A stretch of 37,322 bases of DNA from a virus (Duplodnaviria; Heunggongvirae; Uroviricota; Caudoviricetes): the IMG/VR virus record IMGVR_UViG_2908567220_000001, positions 1-37,322 of that record; one strand, written 5' to 3'. The notes beneath the pieces were generated by a model, which was not told the DNA's origin, searched no databases, and worked only from the letters and a program-made list of their open reading frames with translations. The position numbers and the translations under genes are program-made. Each line of letters begins with the position of its first letter. The first letter of the stretch is position 1. This document shows positions 20,302-23,975 of the stretch, piece by piece.

Positions 20302-21152
20302 ATGTCGACAAAGGCCTATTATTCTATGGATATCATAACAAAAATCATTGAAGACGCTCAAAAATTACAGTTATCCTCTGCAAATGAAGCTGAAACACGC
20401 CTTAAGATCATAGATCAAATACTCTTTGAAGTATTGAAATGGACTAGGGATGATGTATCGGTAGAAACTCGAGTTAGCGAAGATGGCGAGACTACTTTTG
20501 CTGATTATGTCATTAAAACAGCAAGTACTGCGTTTATAATTGAAGCCAAAAAAATTGGTCAGGCATTCGACACAAAACAATTCGATAGGAGACTGAAACT
20601 CAACAACAATAATCTTTCCGGTCCTTTTGGAGATGCCATAATTCAAGCAAGAGATTATTGTAGAAAACTGAGCATTCAATTTGCTGTTGTAACTAATGGT
20701 GAACAATGGGTTATATTCCCAGCAAATAGAACGGATCAAGTTGCATTCAACTCATCTTACGCAATTGTATTTAACAATTTACAAAGTGCACTTAAAGATG
20801 ACTATACAGAATTTTATGACTTATTATCAAGAAAAGCAGTTATAAACTCTAGCCTTGAAGTTACTTTATTAGGCAACAGGGAAGATCAAATAGAAGAAAG
20901 ACGCTTAAAAAATACAGTCCGTAAAAGTATCTCTTATGATGCAAAGAATCCAATATACCCATTAGTCGAAGAAGCAATTATCACTTCATTTTCAGATACA
21001 ATAACAGAAATCGACAATGATCTTTTTGAAAGATGTTATGTAAATACTCCTGACAGGATGAAATTTGATAGGCGTATTAATATGCACATCTCAAAAAGTC
21101 AACACCTCTTTAGTACGGCGCCTATAAGACCGATGCAAAAAAGAGATGCTAA
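20302..21152 (+). pseudogene. 5' fragment of IS5-disrupted gene: HsdR-N-like PD-(D/E)xK nuclease domain
   Basis: AT-rich ORF; motifs ETRLKIIDQILFEVLKW, FADYVIKT, FIIEAKK, QFAVVTNGEQWVIF; frame runs into IS5 and stops 9 codons inside it. Confidence 0.75.
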
Positions 21153-22347
21153 GGAAGGTGCGAACAAGTTCCTGATATGAGATCATCATATTCATCCGGA
21201 GCGCATCCCAGAGGGACATCATGAGCCATCAACTCACCTTCGCCGATAGTGAATTCAGCACTAAGCGCCGTCAGACCCGAAAAGAGATTTTCCTCTCCCG
21301 CATGGAGCAGATTCTGCCATGGCAGAATATGACCGCTGTCATCGAGCCGTTTTATCCCAAGGCGGGCAATGGCCGACGGCCCTATCCGCTGGAGACCATG
21401 CTGCGTATTCACTGCATGCAGCATTGGTACAACCTGAGCGACGGTGCCATGGAAGATGCCCTGTACGAAATCGCCTCCATGCGCCTGTTTGCCCGATTAT
21501 CCCTGGATAGCGCCCTGCCGGATCGCACCACCATCATGAATTTCCGCCACCTGCTCGAGCAGCATCAACTGGCCCGTCAATTGTTCAAGACCATCAATCG
21601 CTGGCTGGCCGAAGCAGGCGTCATGATGACCCAAGGCACTTTGGTGGATGCCACCATCATTGAGGCACCCAGCTCTACCAAGAACAAAGAGCAGCAACGC
21701 GATCCGGAGATGCATCAGACCAAGAAAGGCAATCAGTGGCACTTTGGCATGAAGGCCCACATTGGTGTCGATGCCAAGAGTGGCCTGACCCACAGCCTAG
21801 TCACCACCGCGGCCAACGAGCATGACCTCAATCAGCTGGGTAATCTGCTTCATGGAGAGGAGCAATTTGTCTCAGCCGATGCCGGCTACCAAGGAGCGCC
21901 ACAGCGCGAGGAGCTGGCCGAGGTGGATGTGGACTGGCTGATCGCCGAGCGTCCCGGCAAGGTAAAAACCTTGAAGCAGCATCCGCGCAAGAACAAAACG
22001 GCCATCAACATCGAATACATGAAAGCCAGCATCCGTGCCAAGGTAGAGCACCCGTTTCGCATCATCAAGCGGCAGTTCGGCTTCGTGAAAGCCAGATACA
22101 AGGGGCTGCTGAAAAACGATAACCAACTGGCGATGTTATTCACCCTGGCCAACCTGCTTCGGGTGGACCAAATGATACGTCAGTGGGAGAGATCTCACTA
22201 AAAACTGGGGATAACGCCTTAAATGGCGAAGAAACGGTCTAAATAGGCTGATTCAAGGCATTTACGGGAGAAAAAATCGGCTCAAACATGAAGAAATGAA
22301 ATGACTGAGTCAGCCGAGAAGAATTTCCCCGCTTATTCGCACCTTCC
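21153..22347 (+). mobile_element. IS5 insertion sequence (1195 bp), CTAA target-site duplication
   Basis: Terminal inverted repeats GGAAGGTGCGAACAAG (21153-21168) and CTTATTCGCACCTTCC (22332-22347); CTAA at 21149-21152 and 22348-22351; contains a 326-aa transposase. Confidence 0.95.
21221..22201 (+). CDS. insH: IS5 transposase (DDE)
   Basis: 326-aa ORF inside the IS5 boundaries, begins [35 protein letters not shown]... Confidence 0.95.
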
Positions 22348-22351
22348 CTAA

Positions 22352-23975
22352 TGCTTTTAAAGAATCATTATTACGAGCAAAAAAGAATTCAAAACCTTTA
22401 GCTATTGTTATATTAGGAACTGTTGGCGCAGGTAAAACCACATTTTTACATTACACACGAAATATATCTGCCGCATCGTATTTCGAAAAATCAAATAATA
22501 AACCCTATCCTCATTGGATAAAGGTGGATTTTTTACAATACACGAATGACGAGTCCCCTATAGACTACATTTATAATATAATAAAAAACTATATTATAAG
22601 TGATCCATTTTTTTGCAATTATGAGCTATGCATACAGAACGCATACAAAGATGAGATAACTTCTATAAAAAAAGGACCTGCATTTCTTATTGCGAAGGAT
22701 GAAGAAAAAATCAATCAACTAATTACAAACAAGCTACAAGCTGATTTTGACAAAGTTAAGCCATATGCTGATACTTTAATCAGCTATGCAACGAAAAACA
22801 CACCTGTTTTTCTTGTTGTGGATAACGTTGATCAACTCAGCGAAGAAGTCCAATCTCAAATTTTCACTGATTGTGTAGCATTTTCCCAGAGACTCAAATG
22901 TAATCTTGTTATATCATTACGTAATTCTACATATGTTGAACACCGTAACTCCCCAGCGTTTAACGCATTTGATTTCGATCCTATTCTTATTGAACCACCA
23001 AAAGTAGAGGCTGTTTTATCTAAACGTTTTTTCTTAGCCAAAAATATGCTTGAAGGAGAAGAAGGTGATTTTCTTTCAGATAATGGGATAAGATTTCACG
23101 TTGATAACAAAGCCGATTTAATAAGCTTATTACAAAGCTCTGTTTTAGGAACAGAAATCGGCAATTTACTTGAAGTACTTGCTGCCGGAGACATCAGAAA
23201 TGCACTAAGAATGACAAGAGAATTTATTGAACATGGTTATACAAATCCAGGTAAAGCTATGCGAATATATAGTGAAGGTGGCAACTATATATTGCCTAAG
23301 CATGAGGCTCTCAGAGCGATACTGCTAGGGAACCAAGCTGTATATTCAGAGGCTTATTCATTGGTTGGCAACCCATTTGATTCAAGACTGGGAAGGACCA
23401 ACTTCCAACTTTTGAGACTATTCGTTTTAGCAGCATTAGTCCAATATAGTGCTGATCCTGCATTTCAATATATCGACGGAATTGACATCCGAAAACAACT
23501 TAGAAAAATTGGTGTCGGTGATGATGACTCAATTGCCATACTGCGTGATTTATGTAAATTACGCTTTATAAGCACGGCTGGTCATGATGTACCAGAATTC
23601 AAATCAAGTTTTTATCCTACAAGACTTGGGGGATATATTACTAAGGAGCTAATCAGTAATTTTACATTTGTTGAATGTACTATGATGGACTCATTCATTG
23701 CGAACGAAAAAGTTTGGGAAGATCTAAAAGGATTTGAACGTTTAATTATAAACTCCTCCAGCGATGTAATCAAAAGACTAGAATATAGAAAGGAACGAGC
23801 ACAAATATTTTTTGATTATATGCTAGAACTATATAGTTCGCTGCTTGAGGAAGCCAATAAACGTGTATTACCTAAAGAATGGCGCACCAATCCTTTGCAG
23901 GAAGCTAGATATTCCTTCATTGAAAATCTAAACAAAGCCCTGCAATCAGCACAGAGAAATTACGGGGAAAAATAA
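22352..23975 (+). pseudogene. 3' fragment of IS5-disrupted gene: P-loop NTPase plus C-terminal helical domain
   Basis: In frame with the 5' fragment once IS5 and one CTAA copy are removed; Walker A GTVGAGKTT (22416-22442); Walker B-like VFLVVDNVDQ; AT-rich; terminator follows the stop. Confidence 0.75.

Follow-up and report, generated by a model that had tools for sequence, protein, structure and literature searches.

An IS5-split gene of a Rac-like prophage encodes a predicted nuclease-NTPase fusion: a candidate single-gene anti-phage defence protein

What did a gene of a Rac-like lambdoid prophage encode before an insertion sequence (IS), IS5, broke it into two open reading frames (ORFs), and was its product a defence protein? 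The locus lies in the window analysed here, i.e., the whole stretch of 37,322 nt that comprises positions 1 to 37,322 of the record IMGVR_UViG_2908567220_000001, and all coordinates given below are window positions. The original prediction, made from the letters of the window, was that a single AT-rich gene had been split by a 1195-bp IS5, that it encoded a fusion of a nuclease with a nucleoside triphosphatase (NTPase), and that it might be a single-gene anti-phage defence system. The observation was confirmed and its interpretation was partly supported: the nuclease-NTPase fusion and the reading as a candidate defence gene hold, and an Avs-like logic holds in outline only. On the basis of architecture and genomic context, we consider the intact product to be a probable single-gene anti-phage (anti-invader) defence protein, with a probability of roughly 0.6. 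The parts of the disrupted gene are as follows:

20302..21152, plus strand: 5′ fragment of the split gene, residues 1-283 and 2 nt of codon 284
21149-21152: left copy of the CTAA target-site duplication, direct repeat
21153-22347, plus strand: IS5, 1195 bp, with terminal inverted repeats GGAAGGTGCGAA..., in the same orientation as the split gene
21221-22201, plus strand: IS5 transposase ORF, inside IS5
22348-22351: right copy of the CTAA target-site duplication, direct repeat
22352..23975, plus strand: 3′ fragment of the split gene, residues 284-824 and the stop codon

When IS5 and one CTAA copy were deleted in silico, the segments 20302-21152 and 22352-23975 joined into a stop-free ORF of 2475 nt that encodes 824 aa. 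The second ATG, at position 20326, is the RefSeq start of the intact alleles and yields a protein of 816 aa, whose residue numbers equal those of the 824-aa form minus 8; RefSeq labels it only as 'P-loop NTPase fold protein'. IS-free alleles in related prophages (protein WP_045170235.1) were found in seven complete Escherichia coli genomes, strains PCP06235 and APEC 789 being examples, and the one of E. coli PCP06235 differs from the reconstruction at 1 of the 2475 nt and carries the identical junction with a single CTAA. Since IS-free alleles with this 1-nt difference and identical junction stand at the same prophage position, the insertion is real and recent; the reconstruction is the true pre-insertion sequence and not a chance in silico join. 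The IS5 junction of the window itself was present in 0 of 5426 complete E. coli genomes, and the E. coli counterparts of the element are annotated as IS5-like/ISKpn26 transposase.

The 5′ product of the window copy would comprise 283 native residues followed by 9 IS-encoded ones (292 aa in total), without the NTPase. In the 3′ fragment the first in-frame ATG, GTG or TTG is the GTG at 22524, downstream of Walker A, and because no canonical in-frame start codon precedes it, any restart product would lack Walker A. Judged by its sequence, the window copy is a recent pseudogene from which the intact protein cannot be made, and it is predicted to contribute nothing to this genome. The GC content of the split gene is 34.7%, against 49.9% for the window, and the gene lies on the plus strand between the minus-strand genes DUF1367 (19048-19647) and DUF977 (24075-24494).

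Domain architecture of the reconstructed protein

All the motifs on which the original prediction relied were present in the reconstructed protein, which was divided as follows:

20374..20775, plus strand: predicted HsdR/RecB-type PD-(D/E)xK nuclease core (Pfam HSDR_N_2, invariant motifs, AlphaFold2 domain model)
22380..23000, plus strand: P-loop NTPase domain (KAP_NTPase profile, invariant residues, fold matches)
22416-22442, plus strand: Walker A, GTVGAGKTT, within the NTPase domain
22821, plus strand: first D of Walker B, VVDNVDQ, within the NTPase domain
23001..23327, plus strand: helical lid, AAA+/STAND HD1-like, among the most conserved parts of the protein
23412..23624, plus strand: winged helix (winged helix-turn-helix, wHTH)
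23625..23972, plus strand: C-terminal helical hairpin of ~115 aa, together with the NTPase insert the most variable part of the family

The N-terminus had been assigned to the HsdR-type PD-(D/E)xK nucleases, and the Pfam profiles agreed with this: HSDR_N_2 scored 27.1 bits, above its threshold of 25, and HSDR_N scored 22.3 bits, slightly below its threshold of 25.1, and the HsdR N-terminal nuclease profile matches span residues 37-143. Conservation was analyzed, here and below, in an alignment of 46 full-length homologs, down to 48% identity. Residues D60, E73-x-K75 and Q107-x-x-x-Y111 in the 816-aa numbering, which is used throughout (D68, E81-x-K83 and Q115xxxY119 in the 824-aa form), were invariant. 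We take D60, E73 and K75 to be the PD-(D/E)xK triad and Q107 and Y111 to be the QxxxY of the RecB family. The AlphaFold2 model of the isolated domain had a predicted local distance difference test score (pLDDT) of 83, and its top match in the PDB was EcoR124I HsdR, although the match was weak (E 9e-3, probability 0.63, low template modelling score); the lower matches, to AspBHI, CidB/CinB and a tRNA endonuclease, were weak as well. Because the fold match is weak, the nuclease case rests mainly on the profile match and the invariant motifs, which support an HsdR/RecB-type PD-(D/E)xK nuclease as the predicted N-terminal domain.

The P-loop NTPase that had been predicted to follow was also recovered. 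Pfam KAP_NTPase matched residues 291-454 with a marginal 23.9 bits (cut-off 20), and AAA_16, AAA_22 and nSTAND5 gave similar scores just under their own thresholds. Among the STAND profiles of Pfam, nSTAND_NTPase5 reached 22.2 bits against a cut-off of 34, and NACHT and NB-ARC did not match this protein; distant family members match AAA_16 (some of them above threshold), AAA_22, KAP and nSTAND5, and NACHT weakly. In the 46 homologs the Walker A residues G298, G301, G303, K304, T305 and T306, the residues D433, N434, D436 and Q437 of the Walker B region, and R466 of the sensor-1 motif (SLRNSTY) were invariant, and R474, just before strand 5, was near-invariant. No transmembrane segment was found in the protein, since the maximum of a 19-residue Kyte-Doolittle window was 1.32 overall and 0.74 in residues 310-440.

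A full-length AlphaFold2 model was built on the 46-homolog alignment (pLDDT 80.7; predicted template modelling score 0.67), and the following elements were distinguished in it:

residues ~17-150: alpha/beta nuclease domain
residues up to ~285: helical linker
residues 290-490: P-loop domain with an insert of ~90 residues
residues 494-601: helical lid
residues ~630-700: winged helix
residues 701-816: helical hairpin

According to this model, the insert of the P-loop domain is soluble and helical and lies between strand 2 and Walker B. The region after the NTPase, which had been described as about 350 aa of helical, sensor-like sequence, has to be reinterpreted: it would consist of an AAA+-type lid, a winged helix and a tail of ~115 aa. 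No large repeat sensor was seen in the model, in which only the helical hairpin follows the winged helix.

When the model was compared with the PDB by Foldseek, matches were obtained with Cdc6 (1.7e-6), Apaf-1, Orc1, CED-4, TnsC and RdrA. Further fold matches were to NLRP3 and to plant NLRs, and the fold comparison values were:

archaeal Cdc6/Orc1: 13.2
ORC4: 12.6
BrxC of BREX: 12.2
NLRP9: 11.1
CED-4: 10.9
RdrA of RADAR: 10.4
SeAvs3: 10.0
wHTH regulator chains 3l09 (putative regulator) and 2qww (MarR family): about 10

Two sets of traits are therefore combined in the model. On the one hand, it contains a module of nucleotide-binding domain (NBD), helical domain and winged helix behind an N-terminal effector, as indicated by the matches to Apaf-1, CED-4, NLRP3/9, plant NLRs and SeAvs3. 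On the other hand, its closest fold and its order of ATPase, helical bundle and wHTH are those of the ORC/Cdc6 clade. The Walker B sequence DNVDQ and the SLR of sensor-1 presumably resemble motifs of NB-ARC and NACHT proteins, which we treat as a lead only. Members of the ORC/Cdc6 clade are described as having a helical insert behind strand 2 and, ahead of strand 5, an arginine finger (PMC12839542), and the ~90-aa helical insert and the near-invariant R474 are their candidate counterparts. From these fold matches the NTPase can be assigned to the STAND/ORC-Cdc6 assemblage of AAA+-like switches and not to a single clade within it; the central domain, as modelled, appears to belong to that assemblage.

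The same data bear on how such a protein might be triggered. If it were a protein sensor in the manner of NLR and Avs proteins, its C-terminal helices would bind a conserved phage protein, the STAND-type NTPase would oligomerise, and the nuclease would then degrade DNA indiscriminately, i.e., by abortive infection. The order of effector, NTPase and C-terminal module is that of Avs and bNACHT, and the fold matches with Apaf-1, CED-4, NLRP3/9, plant NLRs and SeAvs3, the presumed motif likeness mentioned above and the weak matches of family members to the nSTAND5, AAA_16 and NACHT profiles all point in this direction, as does the variability within the family, which is greatest in the C-terminal helices and the NBD insert; nevertheless, the protein carries no tetratricopeptide repeat (TPR), WD40 or leucine-rich repeat and has only ~115 aa after the winged helix, no STAND model of Pfam reaches its threshold and no Avs or NLR model of PADLOC matches, the top structural matches are the DNA-binding Cdc6/Orc1 and BrxC, and conservation is fairly uniform. 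We regard this protein-sensing alternative as credible, if rather unlikely.

A lean towards a nucleic-acid trigger, in turn, follows from four points: the best fold matches load onto DNA (Cdc6/Orc1, BrxC, TnsC and MuB), the lid is succeeded by a wHTH, an arrangement shared with BrxC (PMC12839542), restriction motors carry nucleases of this type, and neither a repeat sensor nor a hypervariable region is present. In the mechanism that we propose, the NTPase module would act as a nucleotide-dependent switch; on meeting the trigger, the winged-helix/C-terminal module would cause the NTPase to oligomerise, and DNA cleavage by the N-terminal nuclease would be licensed by this oligomerisation. As the trigger, we consider a phage protein somewhat less likely than a DNA structure or phage DNA that is invading or replicating.

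Distribution of the family and the case for defence

The first homolog search returned 594 proteins at E≤1e-5, of which the best 120 are all 766-844 aa long, nearly all of them 811-844 aa. With a profile search of 1.84 billion cluster representatives, 2080 matches were found at E≤1e-3, of which 584 (50%-identity clusters) reached E≤1e-30; the majority of the full-length ones have 780-880 aa and are aligned over the whole profile. The fragments that also appear in the family searches look like truncated gene calls and not like alternative architectures. A search for swapped N-termini, with a profile from the NTPase to the C-terminus, recovered the same architecture only, among the 120 matches listed. 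The family is thus very widespread, with hundreds of 50%-identity clusters in Gammaproteobacteria and beyond, on prophages, plasmids and islands.

The original prediction had left the protein outside any named family, and this stands, since no full-length match was obtained in PADLOC v2, NCBIfam or the PDB. NCBIfam has no family model, and the PDB, searched by sequence with the protein alone as well as with the 46-sequence profile, gave generic P-loop matches only. None of the Avs, NLR, Gabija and OLD models of PADLOC-DB v2.0.0 matched. Weak partial PADLOC matches were obtained with the HsdR_N-like N-terminus of DrmMI (1.3e-5), with PDC-M54B (3.9e-5) and with mad8, and those of the distant members include mad8, mad3 and PDC-S20. 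In the portion of the DefensePredictor supplements that was searched, the accession WP_045170235 is absent. Full-length similarity was seen with PHROG 14719 (E 1e-156), whose function is not annotated; despite this, 50,697 phage records contained no match at either the nucleotide or the protein level. On sequence grounds, the protein cannot be placed in any named defence family.

Among the 5426 complete E. coli genomes the gene is present in 8, always in the same slot of Rac-like prophages, and seven of the eight alleles are intact and 99.9% identical; the eighth, in strain C8, is split. The C8 allele (locus L002, 6327-8775) is annotated as two ORFs of 292 and 385 aa, and its matched span is 2 bp shorter than the intact alleles, which is consistent with a frameshift. 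In the loci examined (about 15) the gene is solitary, with no conserved or antitoxin-like partner, methyltransferase or specificity subunit. Its settings include a Klebsiella IncFIB replicon with phage-type genes (phage-plasmid-like), IncF conjugative plasmids, a Vibrio element that also carries capsid genes of the PM2 type, a Pseudomonas syringae prophage, at whose edge it lies, an Endozoicomonas element rich in integrases, a position beside toxin-antitoxin genes in Marinomonas, and, in P. putida, Shewanella and Pseudoalteromonas, islets that consist of this one gene and are bounded by housekeeping genes. The slot that adjoins DUF977 holds other cargo in other E. coli lambdoid prophages, either a SMODS nucleotidyltransferase with a SLATT protein or S-adenosylmethionine (SAM)-dependent methyltransferases. 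This AT-rich and oppositely oriented gene is thus solitary, horizontally mobile cargo, and the DUF977-adjoining slot of Rac/Qin-type prophages is a variable cargo space worth mining.

A role in the service of the phage was considered because the replication genes (ydaU/ydaV-like, DUF1627, DUF977) lie on one side of the gene and the nin-like region on the other. The protein could then assist replication or recombination as an ORC/Cdc6-like accessory factor whose nuclease serves for nicking or processing, or it could be an enzyme that degrades host DNA in lytic growth; replication initiators and transposition ATPases are indeed its closest folds, and the family has a PHROG entry. Against this, the gene is AT-rich, points in the opposite direction to the early operon and occurs in only 8 of the 5426 genomes, similar prophages carry other cargo in the slot, many homologs reside on plasmids or in chromosomal islets without nearby phage genes, the 50,697 phage records contain no match, and prophages with a broken gene persist. 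As the gene is rare and also found outside phages, and as related prophages carry other cargo in its place, such a role seems quite improbable.

Broken copies recur in and around the family. A 47%-identical homolog on the Serratia plasmid pCAV1492-199 (locus L011, 4986-8556) was split independently by IS903B. IS5 also truncates other cargo of the slot, namely the SLATT gene paired with SMODS in E. coli CH4804 (locus L012, 6257-7526) and a SAM methyltransferase in E. coli EC4 (locus L013, 4719-6407). This recurrent disruption of slot cargo suggests either a target preference for AT-rich DNA or selection against these genes, and its repetition in the gene and in neighbouring cargo hints at a fitness cost. 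The broken alleles of the family itself could mean cost or toxicity, or simply dispensability. One could go further and regard the gene as a selfish or addictive toxic nuclease, or as a decaying gene without function whose IS hits merely mark dispensable AT-rich cargo, given three independent inactivations (IS5, strain C8 and IS903B) and the IS5 insertions into unrelated cargo of the same slot in other strains. Such a gene would hardly be expected to show strong purifying conservation over its whole length, with every catalytic motif, in hundreds of lineages, nor would seven of eight E. coli alleles be intact and 99.9% identical, and an adjoining antitoxin-like partner is missing; this explanation is therefore very improbable.

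Defence remains the most economical function for what appears to be an accessory conflict gene, because both catalytic modules are conserved in a gene of sporadic, mobile and solitary distribution, because a gene of deviant base composition lies in opposite orientation in a variable prophage slot, and because the nearest structural relatives include BrxC, RdrA, Avs3 and NLRs. BrxC, RdrA and Avs3 are all defence ATPases and were counted in favour of defence. Furthermore, KAP NTPases fused to effector regions confer anti-phage protection that depends on Walker B (PMC12632615).

Several results weigh against the defence reading. Among the 150 best representatives no alternative N-terminal effector was found, and the architecture is a single fixed one; the conservation profile of the family is fairly uniform, without a hypervariable region or sensor, and this combination of a fixed architecture with no hypervariable sensor is unlike many NLR-type defence families. 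In PADLOC-DB v2.0.0, no full-length model match was obtained with the window protein or with ten distant members, and no paper on the family, including accession WP_045170235, was found in the literature. No classical defence island was seen in the sampled loci, where toxin-antitoxin neighbours occur at only one locus. The fold support for the nuclease (EcoR124I HsdR, E 9e-3, probability 0.63) is weak, three broken alleles were seen (IS5 in the window, the split ORF of strain C8 and IS903B in Serratia plasmids), and a consensus promoter scan of the 650 bp upstream of the split gene gave no match, with a hit count not above that of shuffled sequence.

A more specific form of the defence reading can be offered tentatively, as a possibility: a widespread single-gene immune family (at least 584 50%-identity clusters) in which an ORC/Cdc6-STAND-like ATPase with a winged helix may directly sense foreign DNA, as opposed to a phage protein, and license a type-I-restriction-style nuclease. 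Such a system would be methylation-independent and NLR-shaped, and distinct from Avs, bNACHT, KAP-effector and BREX systems.

Gene borders and other features of the prophage

The original prediction had also credited the gene with its own terminator. A GC-rich hairpin does lie directly behind the stop codon, but its T-run is on the minus strand, so that it would be at best bidirectional for the split gene. From its sequence, the hairpin probably ends the DUF977 transcript that converges on the gene, and it may act in both directions. In the 650-bp spacer upstream of the gene, a 28-codon ORF (MENNKSAHYVPFLSVILFVLCCAWALFL) is preceded by the Shine-Dalgarno-like sequence AAGGTGAG; of the two IS-free alleles compared, one has exactly this stretch and the other has it almost unchanged, and some related prophages have hokD annotated in the same spacer slot. 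The ORF could encode a small membrane peptide or toxin.

The window as a whole is a Rac-like lambdoid prophage, in which the minus strand carries the tail, head and terminase genes, the right end holds recE/recT and the integrase, and the RalA small RNA (sRNA) and SieB are also present. As RalA is a hallmark of the Rac prophage, it confirms the prophage type, and the SieB homolog gives the prophage at least one exclusion gene besides the disrupted candidate. An IS3-family element occupies the immunity/replication region, where IS-free relatives have ydaS/ydaT. The features are:

17713-17866, minus strand: adjacent tRNA-Gly(TCC) and tRNA-Thr(TGT), between the Q-like region and the lysis genes
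19921-20007, plus strand: 28-codon ORF
23976-24007: GC-rich hairpin directly 3′ of the stop codon, with a T8 run on the minus strand and an A8 run on the plus strand
27204-28417, minus strand: IS3-family element, whose orfA (HTH_Tnp_1) and orfB (rve) overlap at a programmed-frameshift pseudoknot
28020-28136, minus strand: ALIL pseudoknot of the IS3-family element (Rfam ALIL, 119 bits)
30162-30773, minus strand: SieB superinfection-exclusion homolog (Pfam SieB, 3e-31)
35587-35766, minus strand: full-length RalA antitoxin sRNA (Rfam RF02694, 219 bits) of the RalR/RalA type I toxin-antitoxin pair

Relation to known systems

The Avs and bNACHT proteins, to which the candidate had been likened, share with it an N-terminal effector, a central P-loop NTPase with lid and winged helix, the single-gene organisation and a frequent location on mobile elements. 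The effector of Avs2-4 is a PD-(D/E)xK nuclease, and the nuclease of the candidate is of the HsdR_N type, not of the Mrr or Cap4 type. The candidate is half their size or less and lacks repeat sensors such as TPRs; none of PADLOC's Avs or NLR models matches it, and NACHT and NB-ARC stay below threshold. The analogy is thus valid for the order of domains and for the module of NBD, lid and winged helix, and fails for the sensor and for the profile thresholds, the closest folds being Cdc6/Orc1 and BrxC.

The second architecture that had been invoked, that of OLD and Gabija, does not apply. OLD and GajA are nucleotide-regulated defence nucleases, as the candidate would be. In them an ABC-type ATPase stands at the N-terminus and a Toprim nuclease at the C-terminus, whereas in the candidate the domain order is reversed and both the nuclease and the ATPase are from different superfamilies. 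OLD/Gabija was rejected on domain identity and order, as neither a Toprim nor an ABC-ATPase profile was found and no PADLOC model matched.

With HsdR of EcoR124I, the best PDB match of the isolated domain, the candidate shares the Pfam family, the D...ExK and QxxxY motifs and the coupling of a nuclease to an NTPase. That NTPase is not a superfamily 2 (SF2) helicase/translocase in the candidate, and no HsdM, HsdS or methyltransferase was found nearby in the loci examined; type I and type IV restriction-modification were rejected, given that about 15 loci contained no methyltransferase or specificity partner.

The KAP proteins compared were PifA of the F plasmid, EF_KAP and its relatives (PMC12632615), and RdrA of RADAR, which is deposited as 'KAP NTPase domain-containing protein'. 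The candidate passes the KAP_NTPase gathering score and resembles them in the long insert between Walker A and Walker B and in the fusion of the NTPase to a putative effector. It differs in that no transmembrane segment lies in or before the NTPase (such a segment is typical of KAP proteins, although not universal), that its effector is N-terminal and a recognisable nuclease, and that its KAP score is marginal (23.9 bits).

BrxC of BREX (DUF499), a member of the ORC/Cdc6 clade, consists of an ATPase, then a helical bundle, then a wHTH (PMC12839542). The candidate has the same order, with R474 where the arginine finger would sit. BrxC, by contrast, has 1200-1300 aa, carries no nuclease and works in a six-gene, methylation-based system, and the candidate is solitary with a predicted nuclease of its own.

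Taken together, these comparisons describe a widespread family without a name that follows a familiar plan, an effector joined to a nucleotide switch. If the intact allele protects against phage, a compact single-gene family would be added to the known defence systems. Its architecture lies between the STAND/NLR sensors, the ORC/Cdc6-like defence ATPases (BrxC) and the restriction nucleases, which are usually treated separately, and could for this reason reveal how, in the absence of a methyltransferase, a PD-(D/E)xK nuclease is kept under the control of an ATP switch.

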